NCBI GenBank assembly: GCA_964576275.1
Contig: CAZNUN010000003.1
Location: forward strand, 136,730-200,729
From: an uncultured bacterium
Lineage (GTDB): Bacteria > Fidelibacterota > UBA2242
Length of the DNA stretch: 64,000 nucleotides
Reading direction: 5' to 3'
Both the position numbers and the translations under genes were made by a program. A model generated the notes under the pieces. That model saw nothing but the letters and a program-made list of their open reading frames with translations, did not search any database and was not told where the DNA came from. The stretch's first letter is position 1, and the number at the start of each line of letters is the position of its first letter. This document shows, piece after piece, positions 4,561 to 49,887 of this stretch.

Positions 4561-7197
4561 ATGAAGAAGCTTGTTACTGTTTTTTGCGTGTTGTCTCTGG
4601 CGTTGTTGGCTTATAGCTACGCCGGGATAACCGGTTTCACCCGTGGCGGTGAAATTGCTGTTCCGGAAGCCACTCTGAATAATGGCGGCATCGGGAACAT
4701 GGTTTCAGGCGTCGACCTGGATGGCGACGGCAAGACCGAAATCTATTTGGTAAATGACAACTGGAACGATGGCCCCACGGAGGTTATCCCGCGGATCTAT
4801 AAATTAGAGAATAGCGGCACATCCTGGGACATTGTCTGGCAATCCAAACTTGATCCATTTTATCAGAACACTTGGCCGGTTCTCGTGCTGACCGATCTTG
4901 ACGGTGATTCGAAACAGGAACTGACCTGGATGCCGGTTAATTCCTTCTCTGTTTCGACTAATCCGGTGAGAGTGGCGGTCTATGAGCAGGCGACCGGTGA
5001 TGTCCTGGGGGTTGACGATGGCGCCGGCGGTTATAAGCCAAATTCGACCTGGACCATCACAACAACCGAAAGTCTCAACATTCGTCCAATCGATGCCGAG
5101 GCTGTTGATATTGATAGCGACGGCAAAACAGAAATTATTTTTGCCGATCGCGCTGGTAAGACCAGCGGTTACTACGGAGCGGTCATCTCAGTCAGCGATA
5201 TTCCGGATAATGGCGATGCTTCCGAGACCTGGTCCTTGGAAGTTACCGGTGTTGATCTTAGTATGACGACTGCGGCCGAAAATAAATGGGACGTGGTGGT
5301 CATTGACAACCGGGCCTATTTCTTTTCTGAAACCGAAGTTAGTTTAATTTCTTACAGCGGCTCCGGCTGGACATACACGGCTTTGAATCCTTTGGTCGGT
5401 GGTTCGCCTGTGCAGTCGGCCCAGGCCGTTGATCTCGACAAAGACGGCACGAAAGAAATCGTTTGCGCCGTTTATGACTGGGGCGATGACACAAAGAAAG
5501 GCATCTATCTTCTCCAGGAAGTTGCCGATACCTTAAAACCGACCGAGCTTTTTAATCTTTCGGCTAATTGGCCGGACGGCGTACGCGGTCCCTGGGGCGG
5601 CGCCAGCGGTGACATTGATAATGACGGCAATCTGGATTTTGTATACGGCTCAAGAGCTTCGACTCCTAACGCCCTGATTACCTGTATGTCATATTTGGGT
5701 GGCGACATCACCAATCCGGCGAATTATGAACTGATGCTGATCGATTCACTATATTCTGCAACCGCGGCTGACGGCATTTGGTCGGTTCTTAATATTGCCA
5801 ATGTGGACGACGATCCGGAAAAGGAAGTCCTATATACATCCAGTACATCGATCGGAGGTATTTTCGCTTCCTCAGCGCCAGTCGTTATTCTGGATGCGGC
5901 TGTGACCGGCGGAGGCTCGGAGCTGGGACAATTAAGCGTCGTCACGGATCTGGACTCGCTGGGGATGAGATTTAAACCCGGCCGCATTCTGGACAATGGC
6001 CAGACCATCTGGGTAACGGCTCTGGCGAGTGATGTTTTCGGGAATAATACTTATGCCTATTTATCTACTGATGGCGGAGCAACCTTTACTCAGAGCGCGG
6101 CCATTAGTGGTCACCGCGCCGCTCAGATCGACGCTTTTGATGCCAATATTGCTTTAGTGGTATCGGCTGAAGGTTCTATATGGAGAACTGACAATGGCGG
6201 CAGCAGTTGGACCGAAGTTCACTCGTATTCCGGTGGCTGGTTCGATGGCGTGCGTGTGCTAAACGACAGTGTCGCCGTAGCCTATGGCGATGGTATGTAT
6301 TTTTGTCGTACAACTGATAAAGGCGCGACCTGGACAGCGATTTCCGGAATTGATTACAAGGATGCGATAGAAGCTATTTACTCGTACGGTATGGCGGCTT
6401 ATAATATCGGAGAGACGGCCTGGTTTACCGCTTATCCGGCCAGTGGCGGGACTATGGCCTATATCTTTAAAACCGAGGATGCTGGTGTAACCTGGAGTAC
6501 CATTGAAATTCCTGTCGAAATTTCCAAAGCTCGTCAGCTCTATGGTATTTCATTTACCGATGTCAACATCGGAATGGCCAATGCCAATGGTAAAAAACCT
6601 ATCTATACCACTGATGGCGGAGCGACCTGGGATAGCTGCGCGACCAATCCAGGCGCAGACGGTGATGCCTGGGTCAATGCAGTCGTAGCCTTGCCGGATG
6701 AAGACATTTTCATTGCCCTGTGTGATTATGAATTGTACTTTACGGCCGATTTGGGCGACTCATGGGTTAAGATGGAAACTCCAGCCAATACCGACGATGA
6801 GTACTTTATCTCAGCTGTCGTATTAGATAGAGAAAATGCACTCTTTATGACTCAGCAGGGAACCGCCTTGCAGTTCGGTGCCGGATCTGGTATTGTACCA
6901 AAACATTCCGAAATACTGAATAATTTTCAGATTCACCAGAACTATCCCAATCCGTTCAATGCCACGACGAATTTCGAGTTCGATGTCCCGTCTGAGAATC
7001 TTGTTTCTCTGACGATTTACGATATGCTTGGCAAGGAAATCATCAGGCTGGTGGATCAGAAAATGGCGGCCGGCAACTATATGGCGACCTGGAATGGTCT
7101 GGATCGCAATGGCCGTCAGATGGCGACCGGTATCTATTTCTATGCCCTGAAAATCGGCAATATTACTAAGGTCAAACGCATGACCCTGATTAAATAA
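4561..7197 (+). CDS. secreted FG-GAP-like / BNR (Asp-box) repeat protein with canonical T9SS type-A C-terminal sorting domain
   Basis: Signal peptide MKKLVTVFCVLSLALLAYSYAG. It has repeated 'DLDGDGKTEI / DIDSDGKTEI / DLDKDGTKEI / DIDNDGNLDF' FG-GAP/Ca-binding-like motifs. It has multiple BNR Asp-boxes (TDGGATF, TDNGGSSWT, TDKGATWT, TEDAGVTWS, TTDGGATWD). The C-terminus 'NYPNPFNATTNFEF...LTIYDMLGKEI...GIYFYALKIG...KRMTLIK' is TIGR04183-like. Confidence 0.65.
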   Translation: MKKLVTVFCVLSLALLAYSYAGITGFTRGGEIAVPEATLNNGGIGNMVSGVDLDGDGKTEIYLVNDNWNDGPTEVIPRIYKLENSGTSWDIVWQSKLDPFYQNTWPVLVLTDLDGDSKQELTWMPVNSFSVSTNPVRVAVYEQATGDVLGVDDGAGGYKPNSTWTITTTESLNIRPIDAEAVDIDSDGKTEIIFADRAGKTSGYYGAVISVSDIPDNGDASETWSLEVTGVDLSMTTAAENKWDVVVIDNRAYFFSETEVSLISYSGSGWTYTALNPLVGGSPVQSAQAVDLDKDGTKEIVCAVYDWGDDTKKGIYLLQEVADTLKPTELFNLSANWPDGVRGPWGGASGDIDNDGNLDFVYGSRASTPNALITCMSYLGGDITNPANYELMLIDSLYSATAADGIWSVLNIANVDDDPEKEVLYTSSTSIGGIFASSAPVVILDAAVTGGGSELGQLSVVTDLDSLGMRFKPGRILDNGQTIWVTALASDVFGNNTYAYLSTDGGATFTQSAAISGHRAAQIDAFDANIALVVSAEGSIWRTDNGGSSWTEVHSYSGGWFDGVRVLNDSVAVAYGDGMYFCRTTDKGATWTAISGIDYKDAIEAIYSYGMAAYNIGETAWFTAYPASGGTMAYIFKTEDAGVTWSTIEIPVEISKARQLYGISFTDVNIGMANANGKKPIYTTDGGATWDSCATNPGADGDAWVNAVVALPDEDIFIALCDYELYFTADLGDSWVKMETPANTDDEYFISAVVLDRENALFMTQQGTALQFGAGSGIVPKHSEILNNFQIHQNYPNPFNATTNFEFDVPSENLVSLTIYDMLGKEIIRLVDQKMAAGNYMATWNGLDRNGRQMATGIYFYALKIGNITKVKRMTLIK

Positions 7198-8293: not shown

Positions 8294-9973
8294 ATGAAAA
8301 TTTATCTCGTTCAGCCGCCAATTGAAGATTTCTATGCAACCCCGCTGCGTAATATTCCCTACGGCCTGTTGTCAATCGCGGCTTCTTTAAAGGGGCACGA
8401 GATTGTTTTGCTGGATTTACGACAGGGCAAGCCGCACCGCCGCGCCGTGCCGCCGGAACTGCAACCGGTGCAAAAATTTTATCGCCCGGAAGACGCTTCG
8501 CCGTTTGGATTGTATAAAGCCTTTTACCGGTTTGGCTTTTCCGGCGCCGAACTATCGTCACACATTCCGAACGACGGCGATATCTATTTGGTCTCGAGTC
8601 TTTTCACGACTTATGCCGCCACGGTGTTTGAATTATTTGGCCTGATCCGGGAAAAAAATCGCTTGGCTAAGATCGTCGCCGGCGGAGCCCATGCAACGAT
8701 CCGGCCGGAGGAAATATTGCGGCACGGGGCGGATTTTGTCATTCGCGGCGAAGGCGAAGTTGCCCTGCCTAAATTGGTCGCTGAACTGAATAAAAACACG
8801 CCGCAGTTCGCGGAAATTCCCAATCTTTCCTGGCAGGATAGCAACGGTAATTTCTGGCATAATCCGGTAAAATTGATCGAAAACTTGAACGTCCTGCCGT
8901 TTGCCGATTATCAGATTACCGGCGTACCGGATTATCGTCACCACGGGCGACCGCATGTCATGCTGGCTGCCAGCCGGGGCTGTCCGCATCGCTGCGCGTT
9001 TTGCTGCATTCATCAGACGATGGGCGGCCGTTACCGAATGCGTTCGGTGGACAATGTGCTGTCCGAAATGACTGAAAAAATTGCTCAGGGCGTCCGGTCG
9101 TTCGATTTCGAGGACGATCATCTCGGCGGAGACCGGGACTGGTTTGTGGCGTTGTTACAAGGTATCCGGGAACGTTTTACCGGACTGGATATAGCTCTGC
9201 ATGCCATGAATGGTATTACAGCCGAGAATCTGGATGAGGAGATTCTGACGGCGATGTGGGCAGCTGGATTCCGCACGTTGAATCTGGCTTTGGTGACGCC
9301 TTCTGAAAGGCGTCAGAAGCATTTGAACCGCCCGTTTGGAACAGAAAAATATCTGGAGGTCTATACCGCTGCTCGCCGAATAGGCTTTTTTATTACGACT
9401 TATCTGATTATCGGATTGCCCGGCGACCAAGCTGAGGAATTACTCCGCTCGGTTTTATTTTTAGCCCCGCTGGCGACGCTGATCGGACCGTCTTTATTTT
9501 ATTTGGTGCCAGAAACACAAACCTTCAATCGTTTGGTCCGCCTGAACAAAATTCCCGATTCGCCGCTGTGCTATCGGTCTTCCTTTTATCCAATTGACAG
9601 TCAGGATTGCAGCCGTTGCGCGGCGATGACTCTATTCCGGATTTGCCGGATATTGAATTTCATGCATGCAGTGATTGATTCCGACCCGCGCCCGTTGTTA
9701 CAGATAAATGACGATCGGCTTATTATCGATAGAACTATGGATCCCCGCACCGTACGCCTGAATTTGGGGCTCGGATTGCTGAAATTATTTTTCCGGCACG
9801 GCAGCATCTACGGCACGGCGCGTTGGCGCGACGGCGGCTATCCCATAGTCGCAGAGGAAGCCGATCGGCGTATTCTTGATCTTTTTATGAAAGAATCTTG
9901 GCGGATCAGCGGGCTCCGTCGCTCCGCGATTCTAGGCCGGGATGAATTTATCGGAAAATATCTGGGTGGTTAA
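8294..9973 (+). CDS. B12-binding domain-containing radical SAM protein
   Basis: N-terminal B12-binding-like region (IYLVQPP...LLSIAASLKGHEIVLLD). Canonical CX3CX2C radical-SAM cluster motif 'CPHRCAFC'. Length 559 aa. Confidence 0.7.
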   Translation: MKIYLVQPPIEDFYATPLRNIPYGLLSIAASLKGHEIVLLDLRQGKPHRRAVPPELQPVQKFYRPEDASPFGLYKAFYRFGFSGAELSSHIPNDGDIYLVSSLFTTYAATVFELFGLIREKNRLAKIVAGGAHATIRPEEILRHGADFVIRGEGEVALPKLVAELNKNTPQFAEIPNLSWQDSNGNFWHNPVKLIENLNVLPFADYQITGVPDYRHHGRPHVMLAASRGCPHRCAFCCIHQTMGGRYRMRSVDNVLSEMTEKIAQGVRSFDFEDDHLGGDRDWFVALLQGIRERFTGLDIALHAMNGITAENLDEEILTAMWAAGFRTLNLALVTPSERRQKHLNRPFGTEKYLEVYTAARRIGFFITTYLIIGLPGDQAEELLRSVLFLAPLATLIGPSLFYLVPETQTFNRLVRLNKIPDSPLCYRSSFYPIDSQDCSRCAAMTLFRICRILNFMHAVIDSDPRPLLQINDDRLIIDRTMDPRTVRLNLGLGLLKLFFRHGSIYGTARWRDGGYPIVAEEADRRILDLFMKESWRISGLRRSAILGRDEFIGKYLGG

Positions 9974-13136: not shown

Positions 13137-14387
13137 GTGAAAAAATATGGGAAGACTTTGAAAACAAAAGATTTTATTTTAAAAAATATCGGGCAGTTGG
13201 TGACTTTCGAAACCACCGGTCAGAGGATGCGGGTGGAATCAGCGGTCGAGATGGTCGTCGCAAATGGTATGATTGCAGCCGTTGGTAGAGATCTTGACTC
13301 GCCCGAATTGATCAAGGTTGACGCTCAAGGCGGTCTGGTAACCCCGGGATTTGTAGATCCACACACTCATCCGGTTTTCAATGCGACTCGTGAGCAGGAA
13401 TTCGAAATGCGCCTGATGGGTAAAAGCTATCAGGAAATTGCTTTGGCAGGAGGTGGGATTCTTTCCAGTGCTCATAGTTTACAGGAGATCGGTTCGCGAG
13501 AGCTGGCCAGGAAAGTGCGCGCCCGCTTGGATGGATTCCTCAGGCAGGGGACGACCACGATCGAGGCCAAGAGCGGTTATGGGCTGTCAGTTGAAGGTGA
13601 ACTTAAATCTTTGCGTCTGCTGAAGAGATTAGCCGCAAGGCATCCGCTTGACATTCGGACGACTTTTCTGGGGGCGCATGCCTATCCGCCGGAGTATAAG
13701 AACGATCATGCGGCTTATCTCGATCTTTTGATTGAGAAAATGCTGCCGCTGGTGGTGCGCGAGGGGTTGGCGGATTTCTGCGATGTGTTTTGCGAGGAAG
13801 GGGTTTTCAGTGTGGCTGAGTCGCGCCGGATATTGGAGACGGCTAAATTTTTAGGTCTCGGATTGCGGATTCACGCCGATGAATTTCGTTCGTTGGGTGG
13901 AGTGCCGTTAGCCGTAAAGATGGGCGCATTCTCAGCCGATCACCTGACGGTTATTGATGAGGAGGGCATCGCGGCCTTGGCGGCCGGACAGGTTGTGCCG
14001 GTGCTGCTGCCGGCGACCACCTTTTTCCTGGGATCGGATAAATATGCTCCGGCGCGGCGGATGTGGGATGTCGGCCTGCCGGTTGCCCTTGCAACTGATT
14101 TCAATCCCGGTAGTTCTATGACCCAGTCGATGGCTTTGGTGATTACCCTGGCCTGTCTGAAAATGCATCTGCATCCACTGGAAGCCCTCCAGGCTGCCAC
14201 CTACAATGCCGCCCGTTCGTTGAGAATGGAGTCCATGGTCGGCAGTCTCGAGCCGGGCAAGCAGGCTGATTTCGTCATTTGGAAATTTCCCTCTTATCAG
14301 GGAATTCCTTATTTTCTCGGTTTTCCCGCCAAGGCATCGGTTTGGAAAAAGGGACGTAAAGTCTGGCACGATGCGCATGCGATATAA
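13137..14387 (+). CDS. hutI: imidazolonepropionase
   Basis: 'GFVDPHTHPVF' metal-binding motif and 'SYQEIALAGGGILSS' HutI signature. Amidohydrolase fold of 416 aa. Confidence 0.8.
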   Translation: MKKYGKTLKTKDFILKNIGQLVTFETTGQRMRVESAVEMVVANGMIAAVGRDLDSPELIKVDAQGGLVTPGFVDPHTHPVFNATREQEFEMRLMGKSYQEIALAGGGILSSAHSLQEIGSRELARKVRARLDGFLRQGTTTIEAKSGYGLSVEGELKSLRLLKRLAARHPLDIRTTFLGAHAYPPEYKNDHAAYLDLLIEKMLPLVVREGLADFCDVFCEEGVFSVAESRRILETAKFLGLGLRIHADEFRSLGGVPLAVKMGAFSADHLTVIDEEGIAALAAGQVVPVLLPATTFFLGSDKYAPARRMWDVGLPVALATDFNPGSSMTQSMALVITLACLKMHLHPLEALQAATYNAARSLRMESMVGSLEPGKQADFVIWKFPSYQGIPYFLGFPAKASVWKKGRKVWHDAHAI

Positions 14388-14415
14388 ATTTTTAGCGTCA
14401 GTCGTTAAAATTTGT

Positions 14416-14444
14416 TTGACAAAGGCGTGTAATTTATCTAAACT
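14416..14444 (+). promoter_or_regulatory. sigma70-like promoter (TTGACA-17-TAAACT)
   Basis: TTGACA at 14416-14421, a 17-nt spacer, then TAAACT at 14439-14444, about 45 nt upstream of the TTG start at 14489. Confidence 0.4.
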
Positions 14445-14488
14445 TTAGGGCAATAAATGAGAACAGCGAATTTAGAGGAGGCAGAGAC

Positions 14489-14914
14489 TTGAGCAGAAGG
14501 CACCTATTTTCAAGCTTGACCGTTATCATTAGTTTACTCATTGTTTTCAGCGCATCCGGCTGGGCTAACACGCGGCTGTTTTCTTCGATTCAGCAGATTT
14601 GCACGGCCTACCAGGTGAAAATAAGCAACGATGATATTACTATGATTACCCATGAAGATGGCAGTAAAGAATTGACAATAAATGCTCAAAGTGGCCGGAA
14701 TGACTTCGATCGCGTCATGCTGATTGCTTTTTACGCAGCCGGCAAAGCCATGAAGTATCATAAAGTAATGGTTAGCCATGTGACGATAATCGTCTCAGTC
14801 GAATACAAAGATGCCGCCAGCGTATTGGCGACCGCCACTATTGACGATATAAATAGATATGTGGACGGCAGTTGTTCATCTTCGGATTTTGTCCGCAGAT
14901 TAAAGTTCAGTTAA
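14489..14914 (+). CDS. small secreted hypothetical protein
   Basis: TTG start preceded by AGAGGAGG. N-terminal signal peptide (LTVIISLLIVFSASGWA). No recognisable domain. Confidence 0.4.
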   Translation: MSRRHLFSSLTVIISLLIVFSASGWANTRLFSSIQQICTAYQVKISNDDITMITHEDGSKELTINAQSGRNDFDRVMLIAFYAAGKAMKYHKVMVSHVTIIVSVEYKDAASVLATATIDDINRYVDGSCSSSDFVRRLKFS

Positions 14915-14947
14915 AAAAATAAAATCAACACTCACAAGGAGGCATGC

Positions 14948-15181
14948 ATGGATCCTTTTTCATGGTCTTATACGTTAATGATGTATCTGAGAGGTATCGG
15001 TTGGGCAATCGTGGCCGCGATCGGCTTTTCCTTTGGTGTCGGTCTGGCAATCAAGGTTTTTGATATGCTTTCCAAAGACATCGATGAATGGGAAGAGATA
15101 AAAAAAGGAAATATCGGTGTAGCTCTGATCATTGTGTCGCTGATTATCATGGTCGGATTGCTGGTATATAAAGTTATCTGA
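14948..15181 (+). CDS. DUF350-like small two-TM membrane protein
   Basis: AAGGAGG RBS. 77 aa with two hydrophobic helices (GWAIVAAIGFSFGVGLAI and GVALIIVSLIIMVGLLV) around an acidic loop, resembling the DUF350/YjfL family. Confidence 0.45.
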   Translation: MDPFSWSYTLMMYLRGIGWAIVAAIGFSFGVGLAIKVFDMLSKDIDEWEEIKKGNIGVALIIVSLIIMVGLLVYKVI

Positions 15182-15368
15182 CCCTAATATCTTTTAACCT
15201 TACGGTGCGAAGAGGAGCAGAGCCCTCTCCGCGGGGTTGTTTTTAATAATGGCCGCTGTTTATGTTAGGCGGTCATTTCATTTTTATAGATTCGGAATTG
15301 AATCTGCTACCTGTTTGTATTGCAGGTCATATAATCACATTTCGGAATGCCGGCGGCGGTTCGGACTA

Positions 15369-15397
15369 TTGATTCCTGTCGAAAAATCCTTTATATT
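15369..15397 (+). promoter_or_regulatory. sigma70-like promoter (TTGATT-17-TATATT) upstream of Tat micro-protein gene
   Basis: TTGATT at 15369-15374, a 17-nt spacer, then TATATT at 15392-15397. An AAGGTGA RBS lies 5 nt before ATG 15422. Confidence 0.4.
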
Positions 15398-15421
15398 CTA
15401 GCGGTATTCAAAAGGTGATAA

Positions 15422-15631
15422 ATGATGAAGAATAAGAAAACCATCGAAGAAAAAAACATCAATCGCCGTGATTTTCTGAAAAAATTGGCCGCCGGGGCTG
15501 TTTTTACAGTACCAACTATTCAGTCTTTTTCCCTGTTGGACTCCGATACCAATCCGGAAAAAAGCTGGTGGACCGGACATGGCCATGGTCATCATAACCA
15601 TACTCCGGCCCCCCCGCCGCCCGGTTATTAA
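15422..15631 (+). CDS. Tat-signal small protein with His/Pro-rich C-terminal tail
   Basis: Twin-arginine motif 'RRDFLKKLAAGAVFTVPTIQSFS' and a mature tail 'SWWTGHGHGHHNHTPAPPPPGY'. It has its own promoter and strong RBS. Confidence 0.45.
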   Translation: MMKNKKTIEEKNINRRDFLKKLAAGAVFTVPTIQSFSLLDSDTNPEKSWWTGHGHGHHNHTPAPPPPGY

Positions 15632-15675
15632 TCCAAATTATTTTTTAATATACCGATTTTGTAGGACAAGCAGTG

Positions 15676-16524
15676 TTAGCCGGCCGTCGTCTGACGTGAA
15701 ATTTTTTGCAGCTTGGCGTCATATTCGATCTTGTGAATGCCTTTTAGGGTATGTTCGTGACCCTGTAGATTAGCGGCTAAGGCGTCGATTTCCACTCCTG
15801 AAAAACGCACGGCGTTGAGAACATGCTTTTCAAATGCCTTGAAGGCCAGCGGCGCCACGGCACGGGTAATTTCGGCGATGGCGTTGGCGTACTGACGGAT
15901 TTCCATCTGAGCATGTTCATCCATTCGTAATTGCAGGAAATGCAGCAAATTATGCAGATCAATCTGCCAGTACCACTGAGTGTATAAAGAAAGCGGCAGA
16001 TTGATGCGGGCCAGTTCGCGGGCAATATCGGCTTCAATTAAAGTCTGATAATCAGCATAGGCCAATTGTTGGCCGATAGTCAGCATTTTGATGACTTTCT
16101 GGCGCAAGTCGGCGGGTACTTCTTCCGGGTTACGTCCCTGGCGGTTGTCCTTACTCTGATACTGGATGTTGGTTTCGTCGGGAATGTAAAATTCGTCATC
16201 CATAATACTATAGCGGCCGGAGATTTCATTCACCCGGGCGGCGCGGTGGCGAATCCACTGGCGAGCGACGAAAATCGGCATCTTACAGTGAAATGTCATC
16301 ACGACCTGTTCAAATGGCGACGTGTGTTGATGACTCATCAGGTAGTCGATCAGGGCTTCATCCTCGCGCACGGATTTGGTGCCCTGGCCGTATGAAACGC
16401 GGGCGCTCTGCACGATCCGGCTGTCACCGCCCATATAATCCACCAGCCGAACAAAGCCGTGATCGAGTACTTTAATTTCTTTATCCAATAAAGCTTCGGC
16501 TTCTGGAACCACCACATGCGCCAT
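15676..16524 (-). CDS. thyX: flavin-dependent thymidylate synthase
   Basis: ThyX signature 'RHRAARVNEISGRY' (RHRxxxxxS). Length 282 aa. Confidence 0.85.
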   Translation of the reverse strand: MAHVVVPEAEALLDKEIKVLDHGFVRLVDYMGGDSRIVQSARVSYGQGTKSVREDEALIDYLMSHQHTSPFEQVVMTFHCKMPIFVARQWIRHRAARVNEISGRYSIMDDEFYIPDETNIQYQSKDNRQGRNPEEVPADLRQKVIKMLTIGQQLAYADYQTLIEADIARELARINLPLSLYTQWYWQIDLHNLLHFLQLRMDEHAQMEIRQYANAIAEITRAVAPLAFKAFEKHVLNAVRFSGVEIDALAANLQGHEHTLKGIHKIEYDAKLQKISRQTTAG

Positions 16525-16647
16525 GATATTTCTCCTTATAAATTAACTGCCGGAATTTAAAACATCCGCGGCGACAAGCGCACGTTTTTTATTTCCAGCT
16601 GACTGCTTTCTTGTGAATCAGGTCGCTCCCGTCGTAAATTTCACGCC

Positions 16648-18444
16648 GTGGATTTGAATATTCGTAATTTTTGTATTATCGCTCATATCGATCATGGCAA
16701 ATCGACCCTGGCCGATCGGATGCTGGAATTTACCGGAACCGTCAGCAAACGTGAAATGAAGGAACAGGTGCTCGATAATATGGATCTGGAACGCGAGCGC
16801 GGTATAACCATCAAATCGCATCCGATTCAGATGAATTACCGCTCGCCAGACGGTAAGGATTATATCCTGAATCTGATCGATACTCCCGGACATGTCGATT
16901 TTTCCTATGAAGTTTCACGCAGTCTGGCGGCCTGTGAAGGCGCCCTGCTCCTGGTGGATGCTTCGCAGGGCGTGGAAGCTCAGACGGTCAGCAATGCTTA
17001 TCTGGCTGTCGAGAACGATTTAACTATTATCCCGGTAATCAATAAAATCGATTTACCCGGCGCCATGATTCCGGAGGCTAAACATCAGATTGTCGATTTG
17101 ATCGGCTGTGATGAAAGTGAAATCATCCTGACCAGTGCCAAGAGCGGCGCCGGACTCGAAGAGATATTCGAAGCGATCATTAAACGCATTCCACCGCCTC
17201 GATATGAACCTAACAAGCCGTTGAGAGCCTTGATTTTCGATTCGGTTTTCGATTCGTTCCGCGGCGCGATTCCATATATTCGGGTTTTCGAAGGCGAAGT
17301 GCGTGCCGAAGACTGGATTCGCTTTTTTGCCAAAAGCACCAATCATGAAGTCTCGGAAGTGGGTGTTTTCAAGATGCAGCGCCAGAAAGTCGAAAAACTC
17401 AGTTCCGGTGACGTCGGCTATCTGGTGGCGGGAGTCAAAGATATTTCCAATATTAAAGTTGGCGATACGATCACTCAAAAGACTAATCCGGCGGCCGAAC
17501 CCTGGCCGGGTTATCGGGTCATTAAACCAATGGTTTTCAGCGGTATGTACCCGGTGGCAGCCGAAGATTTTGAGGATTTACGCTCTTCGTTGGAAAAGAT
17601 GAAACTCAACGATTCCAGCCTGCTTTATGAGGCGGAAACTTCGACCGCTCTGGGATTTGGATTCCGCTGCGGTTATCTCGGGCTGCTGCATATGGAAATC
17701 GTGCAGGAACGGCTGGAGCGTGAATTCAATCTGAATCTGATCACAACGATGCCCAATGTGGAGTATCAGGCGCTGCTAAAATCCGGTGAAATCGTTGATA
17801 TTGACAATCCGACCGAGATGCCGGAAGTCGGTGAGATCGACGAACTGCGCGAACCTTTCGTGCGAGCGGAAATCATTGTGCCGACCGCTTTTCTGGGAAA
17901 TGTCCTGAAGCTCTGCCAGGAAAAACGCGGTGTCTATAAGACGACCCGTTATCTGGACGCCAATAAAGTGCAGATCCAGTACGAGCTGCCGCTGGCGGAG
18001 ATAATTTTCGATTTCTATGATAAATTGAAATCGGTTTCGCGCGGATATGCTTCCTTCGATTATGAACCGATCGGTTACCGCGCCGGCGACCTTGTGAAAG
18101 TTGATATTTTGATCTCCGGAGAACCGGTTGACGCTCTCTCTTTTATCGTACATCGCGAAAAGGCTTATGCTCACGGACGCAGTCTCTGTACCAAACTCAA
18201 GGAATTGATCCCGCGCCAGATGTTCGAGCTGGTAGTCCAGGCCGCTATCGGCGCTAAAGTCATCGCGCGCGAATCGAAAGGTCCGCTGCGCAAGAATGTC
18301 ACCGCCAAATGCTATGGTGGCGACATTACCCGTAAGCGCAAACTGCTCGAAAAACAAAAAGAAGGCAAGAAGCGCATGAAACAGATCGGCCGGGTCGAAG
18401 TCCCTCAGGAAGCCTTTTTAGCCGTACTGAAAATGGAACATTGA
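16648..18444 (+). CDS. lepA: elongation factor 4 (LepA)
   Basis: GTG start. '[18 protein letters not shown]' G1 motif, 'DTPGHVDF', 'NKID', and a LepA-specific C-terminal domain. Length 598 aa. Confidence 0.95.
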
Positions 18445-49218: not shown

Positions 49219-49887
49219 CTATGTCTTGAGTTTGAAAATTACCGGGATCGAAATATAGACGCCGACATTGCGGTCTCTTTGTTTAGCCGGTTTGAAACGG
49301 GTTTTTTTGATTGCGGCGATGGCGGCTTCCTCAAGGCCGGTATTGGGCATGCCTTTGAGGATTATACATTCGGAAACCACGCCGAATTCATTGACAAAGG
49401 CCTGCACGACAACGGTGCCTTCGATGCCGGCCTCCTGAGCGATTTCAGGATAGACGATATTTTTTTGAATGGCGGCAAATCCGCCCATCGGTTCCGGGGC
49501 CTCATCGTAAGGAATGAACCTGACGCGTGGACCTTCGTCGCCACTCTGCTGTTCCGGTGGGGGCGGCGGGGCTTCCCAGGCAGTATAGGAATCAAAGTCA
49601 GTTGTCTCGTCAATTGTAATATCTTCGGACAGGTCTTCGTTGTCTGATTCGATCGGAATTGAAGGCCGGGAGGGTGGCTTGGCCGCTTCGATCTTCTGTT
49701 CGATCTGGGGCATTTCAGTAGCCTCGATGACAAATTCGACTTTCCGTTGCTCAACCACGCCTTTTTCAAATTTTGGGAAAGCCAGCATTATGCCGGTGAT
49801 CAGAACCAGACTGGAAACTAACCCGATCCGCAACATCAGAGGTTGGCGTAATTTTAAACTTGCTTCGGGTTTTTTTCTTAGTATCAT
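49219..49887 (-). CDS. energy transducer TonB (paralog 2)
   Basis: Same architecture as paralog 1; the C-terminal domain 'GIEGTVVVQAFVNEFGVV...GVYISIPVIFKL' is nearly identical to it. Confidence 0.75.
   Translation of the reverse strand: MILRKKPEASLKLRQPLMLRIGLVSSLVLITGIMLAFPKFEKGVVEQRKVEFVIEATEMPQIEQKIEAAKPPSRPSIPIESDNEDLSEDITIDETTDFDSYTAWEAPPPPPEQQSGDEGPRVRFIPYDEAPEPMGGFAAIQKNIVYPEIAQEAGIEGTVVVQAFVNEFGVVSECIILKGMPNTGLEEAAIAAIKKTRFKPAKQRDRNVGVYISIPVIFKLKT

Follow-up and report, generated by a model that had tools for sequence, protein, structure and literature searches.

A short gene with its own promoter

The 64,000-nucleotide stretch of DNA analyzed here (the window) comes from an uncultured bacterium of the Fidelibacterota and carries on its forward strand a short open reading frame (ORF), which we call the micro-gene. 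Its product, the micro-protein, joins a leader with a twin-arginine motif to a tail rich in Trp, His, and Pro. As set out below, it is very likely a real, conserved micro-protein of the exported type and not the relic of a larger protein. The coordinates of the micro-gene and of the features around it are collected in Table 1.

The translation of the 69-amino-acid (69-aa) ORF proved identical to the sequence quoted in an earlier, first-pass annotation of this DNA. The ORF begins with an adjacent pair of ATG codons at 15422-15427. Because the orthologs and the database entry P0001 align with the second of these, the true start is probably the ATG at 15425, giving a protein of 68 aa, rather than that at 15422, which would give one of 69 aa.

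The first-pass annotation had assigned a promoter and a ribosome-binding site (RBS) to the ORF, and both were present, the promoter as a match in a consensus scan and the RBS as the sequence AAGGTGA. Taken alone as a consensus match, the promoter was not significant, as the region held 6 promoter-like sites against the 4.2 expected from shuffled sequence. The arrangement TTGATTC-N17-TATATT was nevertheless invariant in eight orthologous upstream regions whose sequence was otherwise unalignable, and the GG columns of the RBS were invariant across the same eight regions (alignment A3). At further loci, either the same arrangement recurred or a TTGACA/TTGCTG-type equivalent lay at an equal distance. 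A search of the 64-kb window with a relaxed regular expression found the promoter motif a single time. The 5' untranslated region of the micro-gene would be only ~25 nucleotides long.

Upstream of this promoter, two tandem terminators, each a hairpin followed by a T run, lie 3' of a gene for a DUF350 membrane protein on the same strand. Close relatives retain the ATGACCGCC...GGCGGTCAT hairpin, and distant ones have other hairpin and T-run elements at this position. Since these tandem terminators follow the DUF350 gene, the micro-gene evidently forms a transcription unit of its own, separate and monocistronic.

Two further observations concern termination around the micro-gene. The second of the upstream terminator hairpins consists of ATGGCCGC...GGCGGTCAT and is conserved in close relatives. 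No terminator belonging to the micro-gene itself was seen at the 3' ends inspected (window positions 15631-15676, L012:4245-4259, and loci L014, L027, and L030), and its stop codon lies 13 to 45 bp from the 3' end of a convergent gene (thyX in the window) or overlaps it. The micro-gene transcript probably runs antisense into the convergent gene. A permissive Rfam scan of positions 14300-16700 returned chance snoRNA-like matches only, with no riboswitch or small RNA.

Table 1 Features at the micro-gene locus and at related loci (window positions unless a locus is named)
Feature	Position	Strand	Basis or remark
878-aa FG-GAP/BNR-repeat protein	4561-7197	+	Type IX secretion system (T9SS) Por_Secre_tail
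B12-binding radical-SAM protein	8294-9973	+	Pfam B12-binding and Radical_SAM
p141, signal peptide and small alpha/beta domain	14489-14914	+	Outside the micro-gene transcription unit
77-aa DUF350 membrane protein	14948-15181	+	Pfam DUF350, E = 2e-6; outside the micro-gene transcription unit
Two tandem hairpin and T-run terminators 3' of the DUF350 gene (15207-15232 and 15248-15277)	15207..15290	+	Terminator scan, region fold
Sigma-70-type promoter: -35 TTGATT(C) at 15369-15374, 17-nt spacer, -10 TATATT at 15392-15397	15369..15397	+	Consensus scan and ortholog invariance
Ribosome-binding site AAGGTGA	15412..15418	+	Sequence; GG core conserved in orthologs
Micro-protein precursor coding sequence, 69 codons from 15422, stop codon 15629-15631	15422..15631	+	ORF list
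Twin-arginine motif R15-R16-D-F-L-K-K21	15464..15484	+	TIGR01409; family alignment
Signal-peptide h/c-region (LAAGAVFTVPTIQS), ending at the putative signal peptidase I site P31-T-I33-Q-S35 / F36	15485..15526	+	Hydrophobicity, family pattern
Tail core W49-W50-T51-G52-H53-G-H55-G-H-H58 (motif W-T-[GA]-H-x-H, then His run)	15566..15595	+	Family alignment
C-terminal proline-rich end P-A-P-P-P-P-G-Y	15605..15628	+	Family alignment
thyX, convergent	15676-16524	-	Pfam Thy1, E = 6.5e-59
TonB homolog with APPPPPE spacer	49219-49887	-	Pfam TonB_C
U/D/beta-helix cassette at related loci	L009:6895-13617; L027:6953-13235; L030:6991-12935; L036:6971-13043; L005:8320-14117; also L010, L014

The micro-protein belongs to a family of small proteins under purifying selection

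A word-indexed search of 5.8 billion proteins returned nine close homologs of 65 to 74 aa, and an exhaustive phmmer search of 1.84 billion representatives returned 19 matches, the true ones of which were 50 to 93 aa long; the long matches in that search were repeat proteins or unrelated Tat leaders (Tat, twin-arginine translocation). A profile search gave 68 matches, and the family comprises ~66 clusters at 90% identity. The few family members called at more than 93 aa (106 to 147 aa) were upstream mis-starts, and throughout the family the stop codon falls within a few residues of the Pro run that ends the protein.

The substitution pattern was examined in 15 orthologs. The ratio of nonsynonymous to synonymous substitution rates (dN/dS) was 0.07 to 0.22 in those pairs for which dS could be estimated, dS being saturated in the remaining pairs; the entropy at the three codon positions was 0.72/0.47/1.37; and insertions and deletions comprised whole codons. 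This pattern indicates that the ORF is a real gene under strong purifying selection along its whole length.

The first-pass annotation had described a promoter-equipped small gene with a Tat-type leader and had offered three readings of it, a periplasmic metal (Ni/Cu/Zn)-binding peptide, a stress micro-protein, or the N-terminal relic of a Tat-exported enzyme such as a multicopper oxidase, with conservation as a micro-protein set against truncation. The description held, and the data back conservation as a micro-protein, all relatives being small (58 to 93 aa) and under strong selection. The relic reading was refuted because no longer true homolog exists among the 1.84 billion representatives. 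The one thing in its favor is a generic likeness between the leader and hydrogenase, Rieske, and formate dehydrogenase leaders; given the small homologs, the selection, and the conserved promoter as well, it is virtually out of the question that the ORF arose by chance or by truncation of a larger Tat-exported enzyme.

All named sources of the family are metagenome-assembled genomes (MAGs) of Marinimicrobia/Neomarinimicrobiota/Fidelibacterota, and the other members come from unbinned metagenome contigs. The lone exception is P0017, labeled "Nanoarchaeota," the contig of which has bacterial-type genes (an M23 peptidase and a response regulator). We found no relatives of the micro-protein on viral contigs. 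Judged by its known members, the family is thus restricted to the Marinimicrobia/Fidelibacterota. Database labels for it are generic ("Tat signal domain-containing" or "hypothetical"), and profile scans placed the micro-protein in no Pfam or NCBIfam family beyond the generic Tat-signal class. A search of PDB sequences with the family profile matched only His-tag-like stretches, and we found no description of the family in the literature on Tat-exported or His-rich small proteins, Tat in Marinimicrobia, DUF350, or Fidelibacter.

Some members of the family stand apart. The variants P0023 and P0024 diverge fully either after the signal region or inside the repeats that encode Trp and His, and they look like frameshifts, arising from assembly errors or from slippage in (TGG)n/(CAY)n/(CCN)n tracts. 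Orthologs also differ widely in how many Trp, His, and Pro residues they have. Finally, three distant proteins of 61 to 86 aa, P0076 (L033:6001-6261), P0077, and P0027, have a like layout in unrelated contexts. All three have RRDFLKK, an h-region of the form ..F.VP.I.SF.., and a short tail, with HHHH in the tails of P0076 and P0077 and PPP in that of P0076. They may represent a wider, unrecognized class of mini Tat-signal proteins or may owe the layout to convergence. The surroundings of P0076, glycosyltransferase genes and a PqqD-like gene, were uninformative.

The leader has the features of a twin-arginine signal that is probably cleaved

We derived the anatomy of the family from an alignment of 61 sequences. 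The n-region is variable and rich in Lys, Glu, Asp, and Asn. In the motif that follows it, R15, R16, F18, and K20 never vary, and L19 and K21 reach at least 90% conservation. In the window, the sequence at the motif is N-R-R-D-F-L-K-K, followed by an 18-residue uncharged stretch, in agreement with the Tat pattern of S/T-R-R-x-F-L-K plus an h-region of at least ~13 residues. The NCBIfam Tat-signal model TIGR01409 scored the protein at 20.6 bits, above its cutoff of 16.7. The twin-arginine leader noted in the first-pass annotation is therefore borne out both by this match and by the invariance of RRxFxK.

The uncharged stretch, residues 22 to 39, includes Pro31, Thr, Gln, and Ser, and its mean Kyte-Doolittle hydrophobicity is 1.49. 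So low a hydrophobicity resembles that of Tat leaders and would give the protein a poor stable anchor in the membrane. Across the family, the h/c-region follows the consensus ..A-V-F-T-V-P-T-I-Q-[ST]-F-x-L-L, within which lies a putative cleavage site of the pattern P-[TSV]-[IVM]-x-[ST]-[FY]. The residues at -3 and -1 are conserved, and that at -2 is free (Q, T, K, R, N, A, S, or H). The -3/-1 rule describes the site pattern of signal peptidase I, and because the conserved -3 and -1 positions and the free -2 position fit this rule, signal peptidase I probably cuts after Ser35, which would release a 34-aa peptide of 3.8 kDa with an isoelectric point of ~6.2. On these features of the leader, we lean toward export by Tat rather than by the Sec pathway.

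Compared with the twin-arginine signal domain as modeled in TIGR01409 and PF10518, the micro-protein has the canonical RRxFLK, the long n-region, and the mildly hydrophobic h-region. The difference lies in what follows, since these models cover targeting only and here some 30 residues, predicted to be disordered, take the place of a folded domain that bears a cofactor. TIGR02811 ("formate dehydrogenase region TAT target," ~66 aa) provides a precedent for mini Tat cargos, being of the same size class and likewise consisting of a Tat leader and a very short mature part. The micro-protein differs from it, however, in scoring 18.6 bits against a cutoff of 48.45, with the leader alone aligned (profile positions 5 to 25 of 66) and the tail unrelated. 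No formate dehydrogenase genes lie nearby; the neighbors are p141, DUF350, thyX, or a cassette of FN3-TPR and beta-helix genes, described below.

The tail, probably exported, is rich in Trp, His, and Pro

After the h/c-region, a variable linker of 4 to 10 residues leads to the tail core. In the 61 sequences, T51 and H53 of the core are invariant, and W50 and H55 reach at least 90% conservation; so does G52 in an alignment of 22 sequences, although this residue alternates with Ala in the wider family. Across the family, zero to four Trp residues precede the W-T-[GA]-H-x-H core, and the spacing from RR to TGH is held at 32 to 38 residues. Every member has two to seven His residues, the run taking the form HHHHH or HGHGH. 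The mean frequency of the top residue was 0.95 in the RR motif, 0.72 in the h/c-region, 0.29 in the linker, and 0.84 in the WTGHxH core.

In the proline-rich end, P62 to P64 are at least 90% conserved. The Pro run of the family has a median length of 6 residues (range, 1 to 9) and ends 0 to 10 residues before the stop, and the C terminus is often G-[LFYW]. Cys is absent throughout the family. An AlphaFold2 model built with the 61-sequence alignment had a helix at residues 3 to 24 only and coil elsewhere, at a mean pLDDT (predicted local distance difference test) score of 68; the cargo of ~30 residues is thus predicted to be intrinsically disordered.

Three sets of genes recur beside the micro-gene

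The gene convergent with the micro-gene in the window had been called thyX, and the Pfam match in Table 1 confirmed the assignment. In most related loci, thyX is likewise convergent, with zero to three genes in between, and it is absent in L035 and L036. We considered a functional link to thyX and rejected it, judging the arrangement to be inherited synteny, since thyX is missing from those two loci and encodes a cytoplasmic enzyme.

The micro-gene had also been placed in a cluster of genes for small exported and membrane proteins. These neighbors, p141 and the DUF350 gene, do exist, but they form a separate operon and are absent beside the micro-gene in several lineages. The pair accompanies the micro-gene, upstream and on its strand, in the window as well as in L001-11, L028, L029, L031, and L032, about half of the lineages, and is absent from L012/13, L027, L030, L035, and L036. 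p141 is always paired with the 77-aa DUF350 protein. It has just nine homolog clusters, the lone named source of which is a Neomarinimicrobiota MAG, and matched no Pfam or NCBIfam family; it is known only from contigs of Marinimicrobia type and appears to be restricted to the Marinimicrobia/Fidelibacterota phylum. Its AlphaFold2 model had a pLDDT of 84, and a Foldseek search of the PDB with this model returned nothing below an E value of 0.05, with template modeling (TM) scores of at most 0.41; this neighbor thus gave no clue to function. The leader of p141 contains a twin-arginine-like "SRRHLF," which is not conserved in homologs, and we therefore dismissed p141 as a Tat substrate.

A third set of neighbors is a cassette of three genes. 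Two encode paralogous lipoproteins of ~300 aa, "U" and "D," each combining a lipoprotein-like leader and an FN3-like domain with TPR repeats, and the third encodes a beta-helix (NosD/Beta_helix) protein (BH) of 1270 to 1470 aa that has a C-terminal domain of the type IX secretion system (T9SS). In 7 of ~13 distinct lineages, this cassette lies directly next to the micro-gene. L009, L010, L014, L027, L030, and L036 have the order <U micro> <D <BH, in which the micro-gene lies between U and D on the strand opposite to theirs, and L005-7 have micro> <U <D <BH. The outer flanks of L036 are a histidine biosynthesis operon and a peptidase gene, and thyX, p141, and DUF350 are missing there; because these flanks differ, the micro-gene is taken to travel with the cassette at that locus. 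The cassette is absent from the 64-kb window, and none of the three recurrent sets of neighbors (p141-DUF350, thyX, and the cassette) is universal.

Other genes in the window bear on its setting. A gene for a B12-binding radical-SAM protein lies ~5.4 kb upstream of the micro-gene and is syntenic only in the close clade of the window, with no link to the micro-gene elsewhere. The window also encodes a TonB homolog and an FG-GAP/BNR-repeat protein with a Por_Secre_tail, which together show the organism to be a diderm that has T9SS cargo.

Discussion

Our preferred reading, to which we give a probability of roughly 40%, is that the micro-gene specifies a Tat-exported, His-rich, metal-binding peptide situated at the outer face of the inner membrane. 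In this scheme, the constitutively promoted monocistronic gene would yield a 68-aa precursor, TatBC would recognize the precursor and direct its export, and signal peptidase I would cut after Ser35 and free a peptide of ~34 aa (FSLL...WWTGHGHGHHNHTPAPPPPGY). The Trp cluster would hold the peptide at the membrane interface on the periplasmic face, and a divalent metal (Zn, Ni, or Cu) would be chelated by the W-T-G/A-H-x-H core together with the His run, so that the peptide might serve as a periplasmic metal buffer or chaperone or might carry metal bound in the cytoplasm out via Tat. The poly-Pro end could act as a stiff spacer or a docking tail. A poly-Pro end of this kind should also render synthesis dependent on elongation factor P (EF-P).

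Metal binding as the function is a tentative proposal made by analogy. What makes it plausible is the invariant WTGHxH core together with the His run, since HxH and HGH runs are classic ligands of Zn, Ni, and Cu, as in the N terminus of ZinT (HGHHSH), the His loop of ZnuA, PcoE/SilE, and the prion octarepeat HGGGW. The conserved His residues are clustered in the exported part of the micro-protein, as in the class of His-rich periplasmic metal-binding proteins. PcoE and SilE are disordered until metal is bound, and Csp1, a Tat-exported copper storage protein, illustrates that Tat can be used for metal-storage proteins. The micro-protein resembles ZinT, ZnuA, PcoE/SilE, and Csp1 by composition only. 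It differs from all of them in having no sequence homology to them, in being far smaller, and in lacking a metal-resistance gene context, and its own distinguishing features are the invariant Trp-Thr-Gly-His core and the poly-Pro end. As for the route, Tat is reportedly able to carry small, unstructured, hydrophilic polypeptides (Richter et al. 2007, J Biol Chem 282:33257, as cited in PMC13186574).

Several findings weigh against this reading. On the side of export, the Pfam model TAT_signal (PF10518) scored 14.5 against a cutoff of 22.7, and no tatA, tatC, or other Tat substrate was found in the window or in ~20 related loci (~300 kb, with much redundancy), the probes being E. coli TatA and TatC sequences in phmmer searches. 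The hydrophobic patch of WW to WWWW, moreover, might reportedly fail Tat proofreading. On the side of function, no conserved neighbor across the related loci points to metal homeostasis, redox chemistry, or Tat; no metal-regulated or metal-homeostasis gene context was found across these loci; and no metal-responsive operator or riboswitch was found at the micro-gene, where the Rfam scan gave nothing and the 5' untranslated region is only ~25 nucleotides long. Two members, P0015 and P0016, are missing the Pro run. Lastly, the signal region is conserved above the linker and the far tail, which hints at a role of the N terminus beyond targeting.

Two other readings of the exported peptide have to be weighed against the metal-binding one, and we consider each of them unlikely. 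The first is that the exported tail serves the U and D lipoproteins, with their FN3 and TPR domains, and the beta-helix T9SS surface protein as a peptide ligand or adaptor. On that unlikely account, the poly-Pro/WWWW tail would dock in a TPR groove and so tether or regulate an envelope complex, and in the lineage of the window, by a supposition that we rate no higher, the peptide would have been kept while the cassette lay elsewhere or had been lost. The neighborhood is what speaks for an adaptor: the cassette lies directly beside the gene in about half of the lineages, and the gene travels with it in L036 despite wholly different outer flanks. U and D, moreover, are paralogous and follow a lipoprotein-like leader with an FN3-like domain and TPR repeats, and TPR domains commonly bind extended or Pro-rich peptides. 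Variants with WWWW occur in 6 of the 7 lineages with the cassette and in 1 of ~8 without it, a correlation that is, however, confounded by phylogeny. The absence of the cassette from the window tells against an adaptor, and so does its absence from the loci of at least five other lineages, in which the micro-protein is equally conserved. Since the micro-gene and the cassette genes lie on opposite strands, they are not cotranscribed.

The second is that the leader is not cleaved and the product is a signal-anchored membrane micro-protein with its N terminus inside and its C terminus outside, like the Tat-inserted Rieske subunit. A Trp belt might then sit at the interface, with the His/Pro tail in the periplasm, and the protein might belong to a membrane complex as an accessory subunit. 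Clusters of Trp are typical of the flanks of transmembrane segments. An anchor would suit the unusual conservation of the h/c-region (a mean top-residue frequency of 0.72) and the fixed spacing between RR and TGH, and the leader is weakly similar to UCR_Fe-S_N, the Rieske Tat-signal family (E = 0.047). This similarity is confined to the leader and falls below the cutoff of the family, and the micro-protein differs from the Rieske Fe-S subunit in having no Rieske domain and in having a short, Pro-containing hydrophobic segment. The same 18 uncharged residues, with their modest mean hydrophobicity and with Pro31, Thr, Gln, and Ser among them, argue against an anchor, as does the AlphaFold2 model, in which the hydrophobic stretch is without a helix. 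The conserved small residues at -1 and -3 and the free -2 position suit a signal peptidase site instead.

It is distinctly less likely that the protein is exported by Sec or YidC, or not at all, and that the RR motif is kept for a reason besides recognition by TatC. This alternative gains from the lack of any match to the E. coli TatA and TatC probes in the window and ~20 related loci, from the subthreshold Pfam score, and from the consideration that a tiny unfolded cargo has no need of Tat. It has to contend with the invariance of RRxFxK, and the conservation of RRxFLKK at 90% or above, over ~60 sequences that have otherwise diverged to 40 to 50% identity. The TIGR01409 score above the cutoff and the Tat-like combination of a long charged n-region with a low h-region hydrophobicity likewise count against it.

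Two further readings fail, on the gene contexts examined, the tests that would define them. In one, which we hold to be very improbable, the micro-protein is the precursor of a ribosomally synthesized and posttranslationally modified peptide (RiPP), its N terminus serving as the leader and the Trp/His/Pro tail as the modified core. A leader more conserved than the linker and far tail, a core rich in aromatic residues and His, and the radical-SAM gene upstream would all be in keeping with this. No modifying enzyme, RiPP recognition element (RRE), peptidase, or transporter is conserved next to the micro-gene across the loci, however; five housekeeping and other genes separate it from the radical-SAM gene, which is itself missing from most related loci. 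The family, furthermore, is without Cys, and its WTGHxH core is near-invariant rather than hypervariable.

In the other, the micro-protein is an arrest peptide or EF-P-sensing leader peptide, stalling at PPPPG near the stop to control a downstream gene, as do SecM, VemP, and ApdA. An N-terminal export signal with a C-terminal stalling-prone motif is the layout of a secretion monitor, and the micro-gene shares with SecM, MifM, VemP, and ApdA/ApdP the small ORF, the export signal, and a Pro-rich motif near the stop, the Pro run ending within 10 residues of it in nearly all members. It differs in standing alone, with no co-oriented downstream gene in ~13 distinct lineages: the next gene is convergent in every locus, with overlapping 3' ends in L014, L027, and L030, so that in none of the loci examined is there a co-oriented downstream ORF to control. 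Nor did an RNA structure test of the 3' coding region find significant structure, including (UGG)n-(CCN)n pairing (z = -0.2). Arrest in cis is thus effectively refuted, which would leave only a function of stalling in trans, and the reading is barely credible.

As far as its sequence goes, the micro-protein is a small protein of the exported type with a Tat signal and a novel, phylum-restricted Trp/His/Pro tail. As a natural Tat mini-cargo, it might bind cytoplasmic metal with its His/Trp core and leave the cell interior as a metal-peptide complex, a sacrificial peptide for metal export or delivery, or its poly-Pro/Trp tail might be a dedicated ligand that tethers or controls the FN3-TPR and beta-helix T9SS module; the proposal is a long shot, and if it were true, either role would be of a new kind for a Tat substrate. 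The peptide is defined and easy to synthesize, which makes it suited to tests of metal binding, of unfolded-cargo transport by Tat, and of EF-P-dependent expression. The partnership of the micro-gene with genes for FN3-TPR lipoproteins and a giant T9SS beta-helix protein recurs across genomes. The Marinimicrobia/Fidelibacterota are an abundant, almost uncultured phylum of the ocean and the subsurface. If the micro-protein is expressed and exported as predicted, it would be among the smallest natural Tat cargos and a conserved, lineage-defining envelope micro-protein of this phylum.

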